From Escherichia coli (GTDB lineage: Bacteria > Pseudomonadota > Gammaproteobacteria > Enterobacterales > Enterobacteriaceae): a stretch of DNA of 49,700 nt. The stretch lies in assembly GCF_003334255.1 (NCBI RefSeq), contig NZ_QOWU01000038.1. One strand, written 5' to 3'. Shown one piece after another: positions 8,203-49,700 of this stretch (positions are counted from its first letter, which is position 1; each line of letters starts with the position of its first letter). The notes beneath the pieces are model-generated. The model was not told the DNA's origin. It ran no database searches and worked only from the letters and a program-made list of their open reading frames with translations. Position numbers and translations under genes: made by a program.

Positions 8203-8242
8203 CTCCAGAAAAAAGAGGGTAGCAGCGTTAACTGCTACCCTC
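8203..8242 (-). terminator. Intrinsic terminator/attenuator hairpin between gltI and gltJ
   Basis: Perfect 11-bp stem gagggtagcag/ctgctaccctc (8215-8225 / 8232-8242), loop cgttaa, followed on the minus strand by TTTTTT (8214-8209) that runs directly into the gltJ ribosome-binding site. Confidence 0.7.
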
Positions 8243-8370
8243 GAAGATTGTTACCCAGCGTATTGCGGTTTTCAGGCCCGATGGGGAACGACCATCAGGC
8301 GTATAGTCTGTCCGTGCTACGTAACAATCGAGAGGGCTGGAATTTCCGCCCCTGGTTCTTGTAATTAGTT
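8209..8370 (-). ncRNA. sroC: gltI 3'UTR-derived small RNA (SroC-like)
   Basis: Positional: the gltI-gltJ spacer ending at the hairpin terminator is where SroC is described in E. coli; the 5' end is not determinable from sequence alone. Confidence 0.45.
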
Positions 8371-16723: not shown

Positions 16724-16752
16724 GCAAAAAGCTCGCCGAAGCGAGCTTTTTT
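16724..16752. terminator. Bidirectional intrinsic terminator (ubiF on +, tRNA operon on -)
   Basis: aaaaa-gctcgc-cgaa-gcgagc-tttttt: 6-bp GC stem flanked by an A-run and a T-run. Confidence 0.75.
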
Positions 16753-16756
16753 AATG

Positions 16757-16831
16757 TGGCTGGGGTACGAGGATTCGAACCTCGGAATGCCGGAATCAGA
16801 ATCCGGTGCCTTACCGCTTGGCGATACCCCA
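16757..16831 (-). tRNA. glnV: tRNA-Gln (anticodon CUG)
   Basis: Minus-strand 75 nt: TGGGGTATCGCCAAGCGGTAAGGCACCGGATTCTGATTCCGGCATTCCGAGGTTCGAATCCTCGTACCCCAGCCA; anticodon loop TTCTGAT, encoded CCA end. glnV and glnX are identical so the symbol is nominal. Confidence 0.9.
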
Positions 16832-16878
16832 ACAAATTGGTTTTGAATTTGCCGAACATATTCGACACATTCAGAATT

Positions 16879-16955
16879 TGGTGGCTACGACGGGATTCGA
16901 ACCTGTGACCCCATCATTATGAGTGATGTGCTCTAACCAACTGAGCTACGTAGCC
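16879..16955 (-). tRNA. metT: Elongator tRNA-Met (anticodon CAU)
   Basis: Minus-strand 77 nt: GGCTACGTAGCTCAGTTGGTTAGAGCACATCACTCATAATGATGGGGTCACAGGTTCGAATCCCGTCGTAGCCACCA. Confidence 0.9.
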
Positions 16956-16984
16956 ATCTTTTTTTTCGCGATACCTTATCGGCG

Positions 16985-18999: not shown

Positions 19000-19244
19000 A
19001 ACCTTCTCCGTTAACCTGGTATTTGTTGCTTGTTGTGTTTGCTTGTTTAAAAAAATGCCGCAAAGCAGCACTGTGCGCAAGCGATTTGGCGGTGAAAAAA
19101 TAAAAAACGTAATGGTGATTGTCGATTGGTGAAAAAAGGTCTGGTGTGAGGATATATTTATTGATGAATCGATAATTTTTAGCGGGTTTTATTGAATGTT
19201 TATATTTTACGGGGGCCAAATTGCTGACAAAGTGCGATTTGTTC

Positions 19245-19390
19245 ATGCCGGATGCGGCGTGAACGCCTTATCCGGCCTACAAAAGCATGAAAATTCAATA
19301 TATTGCAGGAGCTGCGTAGGCCTGATAAGCGTAGCGCATCAGGCAGTTTGGCGTTTGTCATCAGAGCCAACCACGTCCGCAGACGTGGTT
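19245..19390. repeat. BIME/REP cluster and hairpin between asnB upstream region and nagD
   Basis: catgccggatgcggcgtgaacgccttatccggcctac and gtaggcctgataagcgtagcgcatcaggc, plus hairpin aaccacgtc-cgca-gacgtggtt. Confidence 0.6.
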
Positions 19391-27589: not shown

Positions 27590-27770
27590 CGCTATGCCGG
27601 ATGGGGCGTTTACGTCGCATCCGGCAAGGAACAGACAAACAGTTTCAAACGCTAAATTGCCTGATGCGCTACGCTTATCAGGCCTACATGATCTCTGCAA
27701 TATATTGAGTTTGCGTGCTTTTGTAGGCCGGATAAGGCGTTCACGCCGCATCCGGCAAGAAACAGCAAAC
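27590..27770. repeat. BIME/REP cluster downstream of glnS
   Basis: gccggatggggcgtttacgtcgcatccggca, gcctgatgcgctacgcttatcaggcctac, gtaggccggataaggcgttcacgccgcatccggca. Confidence 0.7.
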
Positions 27771-27776
27771 AATCCA

Positions 27777-31859: not shown

Positions 31860-32624
31860 TTAATCATTGAGATAGCGACGGATAGCGCGTAATACCGCAT
31901 CCGGTTTTTCAGCATGGACCCAGTGACCCGCGCCTGCAATCACATGCGCCCGTGCCTGTGGAAATTGAGCCAGTAAATCATCACGGTACTGCTCGCTAAC
32001 ATACGGAGAATTGCCGCCAGGGATAAACAGGGCAGGGTGATCCCATGCCGGGATTTTCTCCCAACCTACAATATGCGGATACTGATCCCACAATACCGGC
32101 ACGTTAAAGCGCCACTCCCCGTCAACAAAAGATTTCAGCAGAAACTGAATCACCCCTTCTTCATTAAGATGCTGGCGCATTATTGCTGCTGCTTGCTGGC
32201 GAGTTTGTGCGTCCGATTCACTGACCGCGTTGATAGCCGCAAAAATCTCATCATGACGGCGTACGTGATAGTCGACCGGCGCGATATCGATCGCCACCAG
32301 TTTATCGATGCGATCGGAGGCTAGTGCAGTAAGTGCCATTACCGCTTTACCGCCCATGGAGTGACCGATAAATGTTGCTTTGTCGATCTGCTGTGCATCC
32401 AGAGTATCAACAAGATCCTGCGCCATCGCCGGGTAATTCATTACCGGATCTCTCGGTGAAAGACCGTGGTTACGCATATCAACCTGGATGATATTGTGAT
32501 CGTTTACCAGATCGCGAGCCAGTACGCCAAGGTTGTCGAGGGTGCCAAACAGACCGTGGACAAGAACGATGGGAGAATTATTGTGCTGGTTTTGTGCAGT
32601 TTGCGCGCGGATATTCAATTTCAT
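31860..32624 (-). CDS. ybfF: Alpha/beta-hydrolase fold esterase
   Basis: 254 aa; GHSMGG nucleophile elbow, HG oxyanion motif (VLVHGLFG). Confidence 0.85.
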   Translation of the reverse strand: MKLNIRAQTAQNQHNNSPIVLVHGLFGTLDNLGVLARDLVNDHNIIQVDMRNHGLSPRDPVMNYPAMAQDLVDTLDAQQIDKATFIGHSMGGKAVMALTALASDRIDKLVAIDIAPVDYHVRRHDEIFAAINAVSESDAQTRQQAAAIMRQHLNEEGVIQFLLKSFVDGEWRFNVPVLWDQYPHIVGWEKIPAWDHPALFIPGGNSPYVSEQYRDDLLAQFPQARAHVIAGAGHWVHAEKPDAVLRAIRRYLND

Positions 32625-35066: not shown

Positions 35067-35084
35067 GTATGACAAACACAGAAT

Positions 35085-35215
35085 TGCCTGATGCGCTACG
35101 CTTATCAGGCCTACGAGGATGGTGCAATATATTGAATTTAAGCGATTTTGTAGGCCGGATAAGGCGTTCACGCCGCATCCGGCAAAAACAACGAACACTT
35201 TGTCAACAAACTGAG
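35085..35215. repeat. BIME/REP cluster
   Basis: gcctgatgcgctacgcttatcaggcctac ... gtaggccggataaggcgttcacgccgcatccggca. Confidence 0.7.
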
Positions 35216-35768: not shown

Positions 35769-36419
35769 TTATTGCGTGAATGTTTCTTTCATTTGATACT
35801 GCATTTCCCAGAGTTCAGTAAGCGAAATAACTTTTCTTGTTCTTGCTTCTTCACTTTGTACCCATAAGAAAGGGTAGAACGTGAAGGCTTCCGTTGCCGA
35901 TAATTTTATTACGTCTTCTCGCCATTGCTGCCATCGTACATTTTCATAGAAGGTATCTAAATCACCGGATAATGCCCACTGAAGAAACTCAGAATATCCA
36001 ACTTCCAGACTTTCCCAATTCAGCGTATCTGGCGCAAAATAATAAACGCAGCCAGTATCTTCCCCAAGATCGCCACCATTAAGAGCAAAAATTCCCCCTG
36101 CGACATCGTCAGCGATGGGTAAAGCCCGCACGCCTGCGAATTCAGGGCGTTGTGTCCAACTTACTGGATCTCGTGGCAACCGGGGGTGACCAGATCCTGC
36201 TATGCGTAACCAACCATTATCAATCAGCAGACCTCCGGAGCCATAGACAAGCGCACCCATCGGTGATTTTGTTGTCACCTCTAATTGATAAAGTGCGGTT
36301 TCGGCTAAATCTTTATTAACCGGTAAGAGTTCGGTATGGTTTGTGGCGTCTTTTAACCAGTTCTGGATTATTGGCCAGGCTGAATCTTCAGTATTTACTA
36401 ACTGATTCATTTCACGCAT
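35769..36419 (-). CDS. ybfG: Conserved hypothetical protein
   Basis: 216 aa from ATG 36419 (MREMNQLVN..) with AAGGAG upstream; the track ORF adds 36 codons. The symbol is from position only. Confidence 0.5.
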   Translation of the reverse strand: MREMNQLVNTEDSAWPIIQNWLKDATNHTELLPVNKDLAETALYQLEVTTKSPMGALVYGSGGLLIDNGWLRIAGSGHPRLPRDPVSWTQRPEFAGVRALPIADDVAGGIFALNGGDLGEDTGCVYYFAPDTLNWESLEVGYSEFLQWALSGDLDTFYENVRWQQWREDVIKLSATEAFTFYPFLWVQSEEARTRKVISLTELWEMQYQMKETFTQ

Positions 36420-36542
36420 CGCTACTTGCTCCTTGTGTGCTACGGTGTCATTTATGATGAGGAATTGTATGGAACATTTTTTAAATATTAAGTTCCTTAT
36501 ATTTGAATAAAAAATGACTTTATCCATACATTGCCACTTTTT

Positions 36543-36681
36543 TCAAAGCATAAACCGATACCCAATACCGGTTTCAGTAATAAAATGGCGAGGCCGGGCC
36601 GGATCCTGTTCCAGTTTTTGTCGCAGATGCCCCATATAATTACGCAAATAGTTGCTGTGTTCGATCGCGTTTAGACCCTAC
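36543..36681 (-). pseudogene. ybfI: Fragment of a response-regulator gene: paralogous copy of the kdpE 3' end (last ~45 codons plus stop)
   Basis: About 90% nucleotide identity by eye with 40878-41016; it translates in frame to ..NAIEHSNYLRNYMGHLRQKLEQDPARPRHFITETGIGYRFML*, against the KdpE C-terminus ..NAVEHSHYLRIYMGHLRQKLEQDPARPRHFITETGIGYRFML*. No start codon or N-terminal receiver domain. Confidence 0.8.
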
Positions 36682-36727
36682 ATCTGCCGGATGCGGCATA
36701 AATAACGAACTATTTGCCAACAAACAG

Positions 36728-40842: not shown

Positions 40843-40877
40843 AATTAATAAAAGGCAGGCTGTATTAAAATTAATAT

Positions 40878-41555
40878 TCAAAGCATAAACCGATAGCCAA
40901 TACCGGTTTCAGTAATGAAATGGCGTGGGCGGGCGGGATCCTGTTCCAGTTTTTGTCGCAGATGTCCCATATAAATACGCAAATAGTGACTGTGTTCGAC
41001 CGCGTTTGGCCCCCACACCTGGTTAAGGAGCTGGCGCTGGGTGAGTACTTTTCCGGCATTGTTGAGCAGCACCGCCAGCAGGCGGAACTCAATTGGTGTG
41101 AGATGCACCTCTTCCTCACCCCGGTGAATCACGCGGGCGGCTAAATCGACGGTAACATCGGAAAATTTTACCAGCGGATCGGGCGCGGTGGTGGCAGAGT
41201 GGCGGCGTAATGCGACGCGCAGACGGGCCTGCAATTCGCCAATGCCAAACGGCTTACTCAGATAATCATCCGCTCCGGCATCCAGCGCGGCGATTTTGTC
41301 GCTCTCTTCGCTGCGTGCGGAAAGCACAATCACCGGCACCGCGCTCCACTGGCGCAGGTCGCGGATAAACTCAATCCCATCACCATCGGGCAGGCCGAGA
41401 TCGAGAATAATCAAATCTGGCTTACGGGTTGCCGCTTCCAGCAAGCCGCGTTGCAGCGTTTCGGCCTCAAAGACGCGCATCCCGTCGCCCTCCAGCGCCG
41501 TGCGCAGAAAGCGACGAATAGCCTGTTCATCTTCAACAATCAGAACGTTTGTCAC
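40878..41555 (-). CDS. kdpE: OmpR-family response regulator of the kdp operon
   Basis: 225 aa; receiver domain (LIILDLGLPDGDG) plus winged-helix; GTG start 41555-41553 overlaps the kdpD stop (ATGTGA). Confidence 0.9.
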   Translation of the reverse strand: MTNVLIVEDEQAIRRFLRTALEGDGMRVFEAETLQRGLLEAATRKPDLIILDLGLPDGDGIEFIRDLRQWSAVPVIVLSARSEESDKIAALDAGADDYLSKPFGIGELQARLRVALRRHSATTAPDPLVKFSDVTVDLAARVIHRGEEEVHLTPIEFRLLAVLLNNAGKVLTQRQLLNQVWGPNAVEHSHYLRIYMGHLRQKLEQDPARPRHFITETGIGYRFML

Positions 41556-44236
41556 ATATCCTCATGAAATTCTTCAAGTTCAGGGGCAGTTTGCTGGGGA
41601 AGTGTAACACGAAAACAGGCACCACCTTCCGGTCGGTTGAACGCGGTAATAGTGCCCCCGTGTACATCCACTATCGCCCGACAAATTGCCAGTCCAAGCC
41701 CTACCCCCGGTACTGCCGACTCTTTATTCCCGCGAGCAAACTTATCAAATATCGTCTGCTCCTGGCCTGGCGGAAGACCGGGGCCGTTATCCCAGACATC
41801 CAGTTGTAGATTTTCGCCCTCAACGTGGGCATCGATACCAATTTCGGCCTGCGCACCCGCATATTTCACCGCGTTCTCCAGCAGATTAATCAGCACCCGT
41901 TCAAAGAGTGGCCCGTCAACGTGGATTAAGGTCAGCGGTTCTGGCAGAGAAAGATTGATGGGCGACGATAAACCCGGTTCCAGCATTTGCAGCGCGCTGC
42001 CGACTACTTCTTCCAGCGTTAACCACTCTTTCTTCAAATTAAAGCCGCCGGACTGAATTCGCGCCATATCCAGTAGATTATTCACCAGTCGGGTAGTGTT
42101 CAGCACATGCTGACGGATCTCGCTGGCCTGGCGGGCGTGGGGTGATCCTTCGCTTGCCAGATCGAGCGTTAAGATTTCTGCCTGACCAAACAGCACCGTA
42201 AGCGGCGTGCGTAAATCATGCGAAAGCGCCGCCAGCAGGGCGTTGCGGATCTGTTCACGTTCGCTTGCCATCCGCGCCTGTTCTTCGCTGGCGGTTAGCG
42301 TCAGCCGCTCAAGGGCATTGGCGACTAACAGCGTAAACGTCTCCAGCAGGCGCTGCTGTTCCGGGATCATCAACTGGCGCAGATTCCCCGGCTCCACCAC
42401 CACCAGCCCGTAGGTTTTCTCGCCGCTTTTTAGCGGCAAAATCTGGTACGGTACACCGGGTAACGTGTCGGTGCCCGCGCCCGCAGGCAGGCCTTTATCA
42501 AAACTCCACTGCGCGATGGCATCGTCCCACGGCGTCATTCCTTGCGGATGTGTTAACGGCTGCAATTTACCGTTGTCATCGGGCAACAACACCTGACTGC
42601 GGGCATGAAACGTGGAGGCAATAAATTGTTCGCTGGTGGCAGCGATATCCTGCGGACTGCGGCCCACCGCCAGAGCTTTCGACATTTCATATAAGTGCCG
42701 TGTGCGTTGCTCGCGGTAACGGGCTACCCGCGCCTGATAACGCACGCCAGCAGTAAGGTTCCCGATCACCAGCCCGACGGTTAACATCACCGCGAAGGTC
42801 AGCAGATATTGCACATCAGAGACGGCGAGCGTGCCGCGTGGGGCGATAAAAAAGAGATCGAAACTCACTACATTAATGACGGTGGCAACCACTGAAGGCC
42901 AGCGTCCATAAAATAGCGCCACCACCACCACGCCAAGCAGATACAGCATCACCAGGTTGGCGGCATCAAACGCCATCAGCCACTGCATGGCAATTAAGGT
43001 GATAACGGCGCATAACGCGGCGGCAACCACGCATCCCTGAATTTGTACACGCCACTTGTCTTTAAAAGAGCGGTTATCCGGCGCGTTGTTAATCGTGCGG
43101 GCGGGTGGTTCATCAAGCGCGACCAGCACCTGATCGAGATCGGGGGCGATGCGCGCCAGTCGGTCAGCAAACGTTTCCCGACGCCACCAGCGGCGCGAGG
43201 CCGGGCGACCGAGAATAATCTTGCCGAGATTATGTTCACGGGCATAACGCACTACCGCTTTCTCTTCCGCTGGATCAGAAAGTGTTGCCGTCTCCGCGCC
43301 CAGTTCCTGCGCCAGACGTAAGGCGCTGAGAATTGCCCGACGTTTTTTTTCCGGTAAGCGGTGCAGGGCAGGGGTTTCAACATACACCGCGTGCCAGACG
43401 CTACCCAGCCGTGACTCCAGCCGCGCCGCTGCGCGGACCAGTTTTTCGCTGCCGGTGTTATGGCCGATGCATAAAAGGATCGCGTCGCGCGTGTGCCACA
43501 CTTTCTCTTCGCCAGGATGCCCCCGCCAGGCGCGCATTTGCTCATCAACGCGATCGGCAGTACGGCGCAGTGCCAGTTCGCGCAGGGCGATCAGATTACC
43601 TTTGCGGAAAAAATGTTCAATGGCGCGCTCCGCCTGCCCGGCAATATAGACTTTGCCTTCTTTCAGCCGCTGGCGCAGATCGTCCGGGGGCAAGTCCACC
43701 AGCACCACGTCGTCGGCGGCATCGAAAAAAGGATCGGGCACGGTTTCCCGTACCTGAATTCCGGTGACGCCGCTGACCACATCATTCAGACTTTCCAGAT
43801 GCTGAACGTTGACGGTAGTGAAAACATCAATGCCAGCTTCCAGCAGTTCTTCGATATCCTGCCAGCGTTTGGGATGACGGGAACCTGGCGCATTACTGTG
43901 CGCCAGTTCGTCCATTAAGATCAGCGCCGGGCGGCGGGCGAGGGCGGCATCGAGATCAAACTCGCTGATATGCCGCCCACGGTACGCCTGGCGTTTTAAC
44001 GGCAGAACAGCCAGCCCTTCCAGCATGGCGGCGGTATCTTTTCGCCCGTGGGTTTCTACCACGCCAACCACAATATCCAGCCCTTGCGCCCGCAGTCGCT
44101 GGGCTTCTGCCAGCATCGCCCAGGTCTTCCCGACGCCTGCACAGGCACCGAAGAAAACTTTCAGCTTCCCCCGATGCGGCGCGGCAGTTTGTTCCAGCAG
44201 ACGATCGGGGTCGGGACGTAAGGGTTCGTTATTCAT
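41552..44236 (-). CDS. kdpD: Sensor histidine kinase KdpD
   Basis: Start refined to ATG 44236 ([16 protein letters not shown].., 894 aa); N-terminal KdpD domain with Walker [10 protein letters not shown], four TM helices, H-box LSHDLRTPL, HATPase_c. Confidence 0.9.
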
Positions 44237-44801
44237 CAAGTTTATCCAGCGCCAGATTGAGTTCAACAATGTTGACAACCGGCTGGCCGATATATTTCAC
44301 CTGCGGTTGTTGGCTGTATTTTGCGATCAGTTGCGTGAGCTGTTCAACGCTGAGATTACGCGCTTTCGCCACGCGTGGGATTTGCCAGGCCGCCGCTTGC
44401 GGGGTGATATTATTGTCCAGCCCGCTTGCCGATGCCGTCACCAGTTCAACCGGAACGCTCGCGCTGGCATCCGGGTTAGCGGCCCGTAATGCAGCAACGC
44501 GTGCGGCTATTAGTTTATCCAGCTCAGGGTTACTGACCGCCAGATTGCTCCCGCCAGAAGCCTGTGGATTATAGGGCATTTCTGCCGTTGCCGACGGGCG
44601 ACCATGAAAATAGCCGTTGCCGGTAAAATTCTGCCCGATTAATGCCGAACCGCGCACCGTATCACCTTCACGAATCAACGAACCATTGGCCTGCCAGGGA
44701 AACCACCATTGCCCCAGTACGGTGGTCAGCAGCGGGTAAACGCCGCCAGTAATCAATAACAGAAAGATAAATGTTGATAATGCCGGACGTAATCCACTCA
44801 T
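44229..44801 (-). CDS. kdpC: K+-transporting ATPase subunit C
   Basis: 190 aa from [27 protein letters not shown]. Confidence 0.9.
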
Positions 44802-46880: not shown

Positions 46881-48554
46881 TCAGGAGAGATATTCCGCCA
46901 CCGGACCAAGCGCCAGGGCAGGGATAAAGGTCAGTGCGCCAACCAGCAACACGGTGCCGATTAACAGGCCAACAAACAGCGGGCCGTGCGTTGGCAGCGT
47001 GCCGGAGCTGGCGGCTTGGCTCTTTTTACTCACCAGCGAACCGGCAATTGCCATCACCGGGATAATCACCCCGAAGCGACCGACAAACATGCAGAACGCC
47101 AGTAAACAGTTCCAGAACGGAGAGTTGGCGCTTAATCCGGCAAAGGCGCTGCCGTTGTTGTTAGCGGCGGATGACACGGCGTACAGCACTTCGCTAAAAC
47201 CATGCGGGCCAGGGTTGAGCATGGCGCTACGTCCGGCGTCGGTCATCATCGCCAACGCCGCGCCCATCAGCACCAGCGTCGGGGTAACCAGAATTGCCAG
47301 TGCAGTCAGTTTCATCTCGCGTACGTCGATTTTTTTACCCAGATATTCCGGTGTACGACCAATCATCAGCCCGGCAATAAACACCGCCAGCAGGACAAAC
47401 AGCATCATGCCGTAAAGACCAGAACCGACACCGCCGAACACCACTTCACCAATTTGCATCAGCCACATCGGCACCATGCCACCGAGAGCGGTAAACGAAT
47501 CATGCATCGCAATCACCGCGCCACAGGAAGCCGCCGTCGTCACGACCGCAAACAGGCTACTGACCAGCACGCCGAAACGGCTCTCTTTACCTTCCATATT
47601 GATGCTGCTGTCCGTGCCCAGTGCCAGCAGATGAGGATTACCCTGAACTTCTGCCCACATCACCACGCCTACGCAGATGACAAAAATCACTGACATCGCC
47701 CACAGCAACATGCGCCCCTGGCGGCGATCGCCCGTCACTTCACCAAAGGCAAAGCACAGCGCCGTTGGGATCAAGAAGATCGCCAGCATCTGCACGAAGT
47801 TGGTCAGTGCGGTTGGGTTTTCAAACGGATGCGACGAGTTGGCATTAAAGAAGCCACCGCCGTTAGTACCGAGCATCTTGATCGCTTCCTGAGAAGCTAC
47901 AGGCCCCATGGGTAACAGCTGTTGCGCTCCTTCAACGGTATTCACAGCCTGATAAGGCAGAAAGTTTTGCAGCGCACCTTGTTGAATAAAAAACAGTGCA
48001 ATCAACAACGCCACAGGGACTAGCACCCATAACGTGATGCGTAGCAGATCGACCCAGGCATTCCCGAGCGTGCTCATGCTCTGGCGGGTAAACGCACGGA
48101 TGAGGGCAAAAATCACCGCAATCCCGCTGGCGGCAGAAAGAAAGTTTTGCACCGTTAAGCCCGCCATCTGGCTGAAATAGCTCAACGTGGTTTCACCGCT
48201 ATAAGATTGCCAGTTGGTATTGGTGACAAAGCTGACGGCGGTATTCAGCGCCAGATCCCACGACAGCCCTGGCAACTGCTGTGGATTAAGCGGCAGATAG
48301 TGCTGACCGAGCAACATAAAAAACAGCACCGCCAGCCCCAGCATGTTCAGGCCGAGAATGGCACAAAGATATTGCTTCCAGTTCATCTCACGGTCAGAGA
48401 CGCCAAGTGCGCGAAAAAGTACGCGCTCAACGCCCGTTGTACCGGGAAGAGGAATGTCATTAATCAGCCGCGCCAGCCCGCTGCCTAAAGGACGCGCCAG
48501 CACCATTAACACCAGTAAAAACGTGGCGATCAGTAAGAACCCTTGCGCAGCCAT
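46881..48554 (-). CDS. kdpA: K+-transporting ATPase channel-like subunit A
   Basis: 557 aa from [16 protein letters not shown]..; the track ORF extends 48 codons upstream across kdpF. Confidence 0.9.
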
Positions 48555-48643
48555 CAGAACGCCTCCGCATTGATCAGGGCATAAACCAGATAACCCAGTA
48601 ATAAAAACACCAGCAATACGCCGGTTATCACGCCTGCACTCAC
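48554..48643 (-). CDS. kdpF: 29-residue single-TM subunit of the Kdp complex
   Basis: GTG start at 48643 with GGAGGTG upstream; product (M)[28 protein letters not shown]; stop overlaps the kdpA start. Confidence 0.75.
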
Positions 48644-48716
48644 AGTGCACCTCCAGTGGCCTAAAAGTGATACCGGAAGGGTAGAATTCTGGCTGCAAAG
48701 ATTTCGCAAAAATCTG

Positions 48717-48746
48717 CGGGCGGGGTGTAAAAAAAGTATAAAAATG
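48717..48746 (-). promoter_or_regulatory. KdpE binding site in the kdpFABC promoter
   Basis: Minus-strand CATTTTTATACTTTTTTTACACCCCGCCCG: direct repeats TTTATA / TTTACA, about 75 nt upstream of the kdpF start. Confidence 0.6.
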
Positions 48747-48955
48747 GCAAAAGCCATGATTTAACTAATGTTTAGTATTAATTTAACTTTTGTGTAACTT
48801 AATTACAGGATGAATGTAAATAAACCATCAATAAGCAAAAATAAGTGGTCGGATGAGTAGTAAAATTACACAAAAGGCGGTACTATTTTCATCAGATAAA
48901 CAAATTCATTTTTCCGGTGCCATTCACCGGGTAGATACAAAAGGGGGAGAAAAGT

Positions 48956-49162
48956 ATGGAACTCTACAGAGAATATCCTGCATGGCTTATCTTTTTACGC
49001 CGTACTTATGCGGTTGCAGCGGGCGTTCTGGCGCTGCCTTTCATGCTTTTCTGGAAAGACCGCGCCCGCTTTTACAGCTACCTGCATCGCGTCTGGTCGA
49101 AAACCAGCGATAAACCGGTGTGGATGGATCAGGCCGAAAAGGCAACTGGTGATTTTTATTGA
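48956..49162 (+). CDS. ybfA: Small membrane protein
   Basis: 68 aa, [33 protein letters not shown]..; GGAG-rich sequence upstream. Confidence 0.7.
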
Positions 49163-49186
49163 TTGCTGAGTTTTGAATACATTGAA

Positions 49187-49217
49187 AACCGCCAGCGGAA
49201 ACGCTGGCGGTTTTTTG
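49187..49217 (+). terminator. Intrinsic terminator after ybfA
   Basis: aaaa-ccgccagcg-gaaa-cgctggcgg-tttttt. Confidence 0.8.
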
Positions 49218-49404
49218 TATCAGGAAGATGTTCAGAGGAATATTTAGACATCGTTATACCAATCGAAACATATATTCATGAAATATATATAAATATTTTC
49301 CTAATTGTTCTTATCTGACAGATATCTCACTTAAGGCTTTCTTATAAATCTGTAGGGTTTCGCCTGTCAGCAGACAAATAACCCGATAAAACAAGGATGA
49401 GCAG

Positions 49405-49700
49405 ATGAGCGGAAAACCGGCGGCGCGTCAGGGCGACATGACGCAGTATGGCGGTAGCATTGTCCAGGGTTCAGCCGGGGTACGCATCGGTGCCCCCACC
49501 GGCGTGGCCTGTTCGGTGTGCCCCGGCGGGGTGACGTCCGGCCATCCGGTCAATCCGCTGCTCGGTGCAAAGGTCCTTCCCGGTGAAACCGACATCGCCC
49601 TGCCCGGCCCGCTGCCGTTCATTCTCTCCCGCACCTACAGCAGTTACCGGACAAAAACGCCCGCGCCGGTGGGGAGCCTCGGCCCCGGCTGGAAAATGCC
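49405..49700 (+). CDS. rhsC: 5' end of an Rhs-family polymorphic toxin gene (runs off the window)
   Basis: ATG 49405 with AAGGA upstream; product MSGKPAARQGDMTQYGGSIVQGSAGVRIGAPTGVACSVCPGG..LPFILSRTYSSYRTKTPAPVGSLGPGWKM, the conserved Rhs N-terminus; sharp rise in GC content; no stop before the window end. Confidence 0.8.
   Translation, partial: MSGKPAARQGDMTQYGGSIVQGSAGVRIGAPTGVACSVCPGGVTSGHPVNPLLGAKVLPGETDIALPGPLPFILSRTYSSYRTKTPAPVGSLGPGWKM

Follow-up and report, generated by a model that had tools for sequence, protein, structure and literature searches.

An Escherichia coli sequence that stops shortly after the start of rhsC in the kdp-ybfA / phrB locus

DNA that breaks off just inside an Rhs gene raises the questions of which Rhs gene it is, why the sequence stops there, and what can be said of the toxin that would be encoded beyond the break. 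We examined these questions for the last 296 bases of the window, that is, the whole stretch of 49,700 nucleotides of E. coli DNA that was analysed. The best explanation as a whole, which we hold at a probability of roughly 95%, combines the 5' end of rhsC, the standard Rhs effector mechanism and a sequence end caused by a repeat.

The sequence-only reading had placed a conserved Rhs N-terminus at 49405, with a marked shift to GC-rich composition, and both statements held. An ATG at 49405-49407 on the plus strand opens a frame of 98 codons that reaches the window end, and the remaining two plus-strand frames at 49405-49700 contain stops. The GC content of these bases is 0.676, compared with 0.33-0.36 in the spacer before it and a window average of 0.511, and no other 296-base stretch of the window is as GC-rich (next highest, 0.642; mean 0.511, sd 0.054); the third codon positions of the 98-codon frame reach 0.765. 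The start codon is preceded by a ribosome-binding motif:

49393..49397, plus strand: Shine-Dalgarno-like AAGGA, 7 nt before the ATG, read directly from the sequence and conserved in rhsA

A 68-codon open reading frame on the minus strand (49428-49634) was dismissed as a shadow of the GC-rich plus-strand frame, and the chance-ORF reading was dismissed with it. A mini-ORF of three codons (ATG AGC AGA TGA, 49397-49408) begins within the ribosome site and terminates on the rhsC start codon, the two overlapping as ATGA; in rhsA one base is deleted at this place, and the mini-ORF is probably without meaning.

Residues 1-98 of the translated frame matched positions 1-98 of the NCBIfam RHS_core model NF041261 (E 4.6e-61, 206.9 bits), a score that falls short of the whole-protein cut-off of 2,000 bits only because 7% of the protein is present. 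In addition, Pfam DUF6531 was found on residues 46-97 (E 1.2e-12), over model positions 1-47 of 74, where the match is cut by the window end. Since the 98-residue peptide is identical in RhsA, RhsB and RhsC of K-12 (and 93% identical to RhsD), the peptide alone cannot name the paralogue, and it is the flank and the paralogue-specific bases that do so. Upstream lie kdpE, kdpD, kdpC, kdpB, kdpA, kdpF and ybfA, in the same order as in annotated genomes, and ybfA, the immediate neighbour, encodes a DUF2517 protein. Many E. coli chromosomes match the final 1 kb at 100% identity, among them that of K-12 MG1655, in which it is annotated as ybfA followed by rhsC; indeed, not a single base differs from K-12 between 47735 and 49700, across ybfA and then rhsC. 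Within 49405-49623, the window carries the rhsC base at seven of the seven sites that separate it from K-12 rhsA and likewise at 7/7 sites separating it from rhsB. The 1-kb query found matches in 5,424 of the 5,426 complete E. coli genomes, with a median of four matching places per genome, and the ybfA-rhsC junction was covered in 3,687 of the 5,426. Two further marks of a clade I Rhs gene are present, namely a GC-rich core between AT-rich flanks and multiple copies in each genome. Judged by these sequence matches, positions 49405-49700 hold the beginning of E. coli rhsC, specifically the gene in the kdp-ybfA / phrB locus. The rhsC start is an already known feature, and the window adds nothing new on the Rhs effector mechanism; rhsC has been known since the 1980s-90s, and the family is by now understood structurally. 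In the catalogue of E. coli Rhs (rearrangement hot spot) loci (Jackson et al. 2009), the site from kdpA to phr is position 5, which belongs to clade I and was inferred to be ancestral in E. coli (PMC2935791).

The spacer between ybfA and rhsC contains two further features:

49188..49217, plus strand: intrinsic terminator after ybfA, CCGCCAGCG-GAAA-CGCTGGCGG and then TTTTTT (fold -28.6 kcal/mol, z -7.9 versus shuffles)
49287..49404, plus strand: AT-rich 5' leader or promoter region of the Rhs element, common to rhsA and absent from rhsB and rhsD

The hairpin at 49188-49217 was missed by the simple scan that also covered promoters and was confirmed by folding. Since a strong hairpin with a T-run ends ybfA, rhsC is transcribed as a separate unit, preceded by 187 bases of AT-rich spacer. 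In blastn, K-12 rhsA aligned to 49287-49700 at 95.9% identity, with the spacer part (49287-49404) at 92%, and homology to K-12 rhsB and rhsD begins only at 49404/49405. As the rhsA homology is present already from 49287, the repeated element starts at about 49287, 118 bases before the ATG. The spacer shared by rhsA and rhsC fits the published inference that the rhsA position is a duplication of the rhsC position (PMC2935791). A sigma-70 promoter scan of 48550-49700 gave no consensus match, with fewer matches than in shuffles, and genomic SELEX lists a minor-sigma holoenzyme binding site for the ybfA-rhsC spacer (PMC5493296). Our literature search on the function of rhsC or ybfB found only these minor-sigma tables and an in-silico study of O157.

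The visible codons, which make up only 7% of the rhsC gene, divide into the following parts:

49405..49545, plus strand: rhsC codons 1-47, a head with one PAAR-like repeat (residues 2-29, KPAARQGD...VRIG) and a Cys-rich linker, by homology to Tse5-NT
49543..49548, plus strand: predicted N-terminal autocleavage site H47/P48 (cat/ccg), from the alignment with the Tse5 shell chain
49546..49698, plus strand: rhsC codons 48-98, the first approximately two-thirds of the N-terminal plug (DUF6531), ended by the window, from Pfam DUF6531 and Tse5

The 47-residue head is predicted, by analogy, to be the part that binds the VgrG spike. Its residues 2-29 (GKPAARQGDMTQYGGSIVQGSAGVRIG) find a counterpart only in the last (third) repeat of PAAR proteins of solved structure (E 9e-4 to 0.8), the best structure alignments being those to 9rce_c (E 9e-4) and 4jiv_D (E 0.011). 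A full PAAR domain (PF05488; NF033420) was rejected, since the head has one repeat rather than three and scores under the family thresholds (Pfam PAAR_motif, i-E 0.027; NCBIfam T6SS_PAAR_dom, 16.4 bits versus a cut-off of 124). On the alignments, "PAAR-like", as used for Tse5, is the correct term for this head. In Tse5, residues 1-47 (Tse5-NT) are a PAAR-like fragment described as required for secretion, the Lys47-Pro48 bond is cut, as determined by N-terminal sequencing, and the N-terminal plug of the shell consists of residues 48-124 (DUF6531) (PMC10684867). The Tse5 shell chain 8cp6_B begins at its own P48 and aligns from P48 of RhsC (PVNPLLGAKVLP versus PVNPMLGSKLLP), and by analogy RhsC may be cleaved between H47 and P48.

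We then turned to the abrupt end of the sequence, which falls within a perfect repeat:

49624..49700, plus strand: first 77 bases of a 341-base exact run common to K-12 rhsC, rhsA and rhsB (the run being 49624-49964 in K-12)

The rhsC-specific bases end at 49623, after which the window covers exactly 77 bases of the 341-base run. When the strain-specific KdpC variant (Leu to Gln) was used for an exact-protein look-up, the lineage turned up only in draft assemblies and metagenomes. One draft contig of this lineage matches the window over 13.6 kb with 100% identity, and among the five lineage contigs listed, four break off 211-346 bases into rhsC and the fifth between ybfA and rhsC. The lineage draft contigs L009 and L010 end 127 and 121 bases, respectively, into the same 341-base run, and 77, 121 and 127 are all plausible de Bruijn k-mer sizes. 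As the window ends 77 bases into an exact repeat and the lineage drafts end likewise, the pattern is the signature of a de Bruijn contig end, and 49700 is most likely where a short-read assembly with k = 77 became stuck at the Rhs repeat. Since the window start lies inside djlB, where there is no repeat boundary, only the 49700 side is a contig end. Extending the window by 6 kb downstream in the source assembly, as had been proposed from the letters, would thus probably fail, and the five listed lineage draft contigs yielded no rhsC downstream sequence, all of them stopping before the YD repeats.

The tRNA cluster downstream of ubiF (16750-16960, minus strand) holds two genes only, Gln-CUG and Met, and ML35 and K-12-like genomes have seven tRNAs there (glnX, glnV, metU, glnW, glnU, leuW and metT). 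The window is without 505 bases (112 + 393) at this cluster, and both tRNA-Gln(UUG) genes and tRNA-Leu(UAG) are gone with them; the two-tRNA layout in one piece occurs in a handful of the 5,426 complete genomes (MC1061, GF47 and HS13-1). To our knowledge, the missing tRNA-Gln(UUG) genes are the only readers of CAA in E. coli, so that the two-tRNA cluster most likely reflects repeats that were collapsed during short-read assembly, in agreement with the contig-end reading at 49700. The stop in the Rhs core and the collapsed tRNA cluster together mark a short-read assembly, in which repeat copy numbers are untrustworthy.

The window has several other features of its own. Relative to ML35, private differences at 32542, 34768, 34918, 36281, 36957, 43416 and 44302 are all transversions (7/7), and the nine private differences further upstream are all transitions (9/9). 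By comparison with the K-12 proteins, we take the change at 44302 to be Leu to Gln in KdpC and that at 43416 to be Ala to Glu in KdpD; the KdpC variant is also present in independent public assemblies, so that at least this difference is real. The 3' end of kdpE (40877-41021) is copied downstream of potE (36542-36686) over 145 bases at 90% identity, and this copy is annotated in relatives as a winged-helix pseudogene fragment. An intergenic repeat of about 125-140 bases occurs three times (19221-19361, 27646-27771 and 35069-35209), the copies being 85-90% alike and the second lying in the opposite orientation to the first; an Rfam ES036 (CssrF) match at 19281-19323 coincides with part of the first copy, and the repeat is probably of the ERIC/IRU type. 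A DUF2625 gene (35769-36419, minus strand) is intact in the window, in ML35 and in FORC 064, whereas in K-12 and MC1061 an internal stop has made it a pseudogene. The small RNA sroC, in the gltI-gltJ region (8207-8369, minus strand), gave a full-length Rfam match of 174.8 bits, as expected for E. coli.

The sequence-only reading had also stated that the variable part lies beyond the window and that the toxin type cannot be assessed from it, and we agree, as the window ends at codon 98. Past the position equivalent to 49700, and hence outside the window, the K-12 locus continues with the YD repeats, protease motif, toxin and immunity gene. K-12 RhsC (b0700, WP_000015200.1) has 1,397 residues, with RHS_core at 1-1247 (2,683 bits), shell-forming YD repeats of the type YDxxGRL[I/T] (TIGR01643, E 9e-41) and Rhs_assc_core (TIGR03696) at 1170-1247. 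Its protease motif, of the PxxxxDPxGL type that marks where the variable tip begins, consists of DPIG at 1221 and DPLGL at 1243 (PLNPISNIDPLGL, ending at 1247), spaced as DPIG-X18-DPLGL, which matches the DPxG-X18-DPxG spacing quoted for Enterobacteriaceae (PMC10684867). The variable tip that follows is cysteine-rich and 150 residues long, and a Pfam search of K-12 RhsC residues 1201-1397 (the last 197, including the tip) returned zero families. From the core through the tip to ybfB, the GC content in K-12 falls from 0.61 to 0.41 and 0.31. Directly 3' of K-12 rhsC, ybfB encodes a very hydrophobic, small membrane protein of 108 residues; next come an orphan core fragment that carries a tip of its own (YbfO) and then YbfC, the start of which is signal-peptide-like. 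An NCBIfam search of YbfB, YbfC and YbfA gave zero matches. The immunity candidates YbfB and YbfC look envelope-located, which would suggest toxins that act in the membrane or periplasm.

Taking the K-12 orthologue and the solved Rhs effectors as a basis, we propose the following mechanism for RhsC. The full protein of about 1,400 residues would fold into a closed beta-shell of YD repeats that encloses the variable C-terminal toxin of about 150 residues, which would be cut inside the shell by the aspartyl protease plug with the DPxG-X18-DPxGL motif. Mounted by its head on a VgrG spike, the shell would be delivered to neighbouring bacteria by a type VI secretion system, and a small immunity protein encoded just downstream would protect the producer. 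The GC-rich core, present in about four near-identical copies per genome, is thereby a recombination substrate, and the downstream orphan core-tip/immunity modules could replace the toxin by recombination. K-12, which has the same rhsC gene, is not known to have a type VI system. No VgrG, Eag chaperone or type VI gene was found in the window or near the locus, and the in-silico study of E. coli O157 calls it unclear whether any VgrG carries RhsA/B/C and, if so, which one (PMC7216683).

We compared the downstream state of rhsC in the closest complete genomes. Over the last 25 kb, the closest of them are all 8 mismatches off, and none of the 5,426 complete E. coli genomes is identical; the eight differences are private to the window, that is, absent from the closest complete genomes. 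In the genomes inspected, the rhsC locus takes at least four forms:

K-12, MC1061 and Z1323HEC0011: rhsC intact, 1,397 residues
ML35: an IS5-family element within the tip-coding end of rhsC
JP538: rhsC annotated as frameshifted
FORC 064 and BA92: a 2,697-base deletion within the rhsC locus (FORC 064: L006 15693-15710; BA92: L008)

The 2,697-base deletion was made through an 18-base overlap, so that core residue ~668 now runs directly into the orphan fragment at its residue ~50. Its product has 1,118 residues, about 280 shell residues fewer; RhsC-CT and ybfB are gone, and ybfC is directly next. The exact junction was found in seven complete genomes, six of which (6/7) are among the best 25 nearest to the window, and the K-12-type tip with ybfB is present in 2,536 of the 5,426 complete genomes. 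In about half of the inspected closest complete genomes, rhsC is interrupted or rearranged. Since near-identical genomes differ downstream and the differences of the window are private, the state of the relatives is not transferable to the source strain. A SNP comparison for choosing the downstream state of a relative was uninformative, as the differences are private to the window. As a rough estimate, the source strain has an intact K-12-type rhsC with 55-65%, the deletion fusion with about 20%, and other states for the rest. The toxin and immunity content of the rhsC locus is thus not one to be inferred from relatives, and strain-level claims on Rhs weaponry need long reads.

Three other explanations were weighed against this account. 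That the stretch is instead the head of the paralogue rhsA, rhsB or rhsD, or a mis-joined chimera, we consider almost inconceivable: the identical 98-residue peptide of K-12 RhsA, RhsB and RhsC would allow it, as would a source that looks like a short-read assembly with other repeats collapsed, but the DNA is contiguous with ybfA and kdp and has the rhsC bases at all 7 + 7 discriminating sites, and the kdp-ybfA flank is present in five of five draft contigs of the lineage, four of which continue into rhsC. A reading with a real chance, which we nevertheless put somewhat short of even, is that the rhsC of the source strain is a non-working toxin gene, interrupted by an IS element, frameshifted or fused by deletion to the orphan YbfO tip. 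The IS5-family hit of ML35, the frameshift of JP538 and the deletion of FORC 064 and BA92 all occur among the closest genomes, and the deletion junction recurs in seven complete genomes, six of them in the best 25. On the other side stand the intact 1,397-residue gene of K-12, MC1061 and Z1323HEC0011 and the K-12-type tip with ybfB in 2,536 of 5,426 genomes, and, with its eight private differences, the window has no inspected genome that could stand in for it.

The delivery step admits a further alternative, that rhsC works without type VI secretion, either as an intracellular toxin-immunity (toxin-antitoxin-like) module or as a silent reservoir. Type VI genes do not adjoin the locus, the head has a single PAAR-like repeat only, and K-12 keeps rhsC though it is not known to have the secretion system. 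One Salmonella study reports that Rhs elements can also be type II toxin-antitoxin modules (PMC7043789). We nevertheless regard such a role as unlikely, since Tse5, the closest solved homologue, has the same short head and is a type VI effector whose head is described as needed for secretion, and since the very hydrophobic YbfB and the signal-peptide-like YbfC fit a toxin that comes from outside. Finally, we allow a slim chance that the unseen part of rhsC holds an undescribed toxin tip and immunity pair, or a shortened shell with the YbfO tip, or that the single-repeat head uses a non-canonical mounting or release route. If so, the shell-YbfO fusion would be a functional case in which unequal recombination had activated an orphan toxin, and a clade-I "orphan" Rhs head, kept even without type VI secretion, would mount by means other than PAAR-VgrG.

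The preferred reading, the 5' end of rhsC with the standard Rhs effector mechanism, can be set against systems that are already known. K-12 rhsC is the nearest of these, with identical visible DNA (from 47735 on) and the same upstream genes, start codon, ribosome site and 98 residues. The source strain nevertheless differs from K-12 by 10 differences in the last 15 kb, by the lack of an IS5 between gltI and lnt, and by an intact DUF2625 gene.

Among solved structures, the best match to full-length K-12 RhsC is Pseudomonas aeruginosa Tse5 (RhsP1; 8cp6), with E 1e-125. The two share a PAAR-like head of about 47 residues, a cleavage position before the PVNP motif at residue 48, which for RhsC is predicted, and the DUF6531 plug. 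Tse5 is a type VI Rhs effector with a pore-forming toxin, and it comes from another genus and has low overall identity to RhsC. While Tse5 adjoins its own VgrG, rhsC has no type VI neighbour, and the RhsC tip has no Pfam match. The N-terminal cleavage of Tse5 was dispensable for killing (PMC10684867). In canonical PAAR spike tips (PF05488; 4jiv), three repeats build the cone, whereas the RhsC head matches the third repeat only (GKPAARQGD...VRIG). The PAAR/TMD Rhs effectors with Eag chaperones, namely P. protegens RhsA (7q97) and Photorhabdus Rhs1/Tre23 (7pq5), have in common with RhsC the YD-repeat shell, the N- and C-terminal plugs and a double autoproteolysis, which for RhsC would be expected by homology. 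Their N-terminal regions of 25-45 kDa carry transmembrane segments and a full PAAR domain (PMC10684867), whereas the RhsC head is of about 5 kDa and has no chaperone gene upstream.
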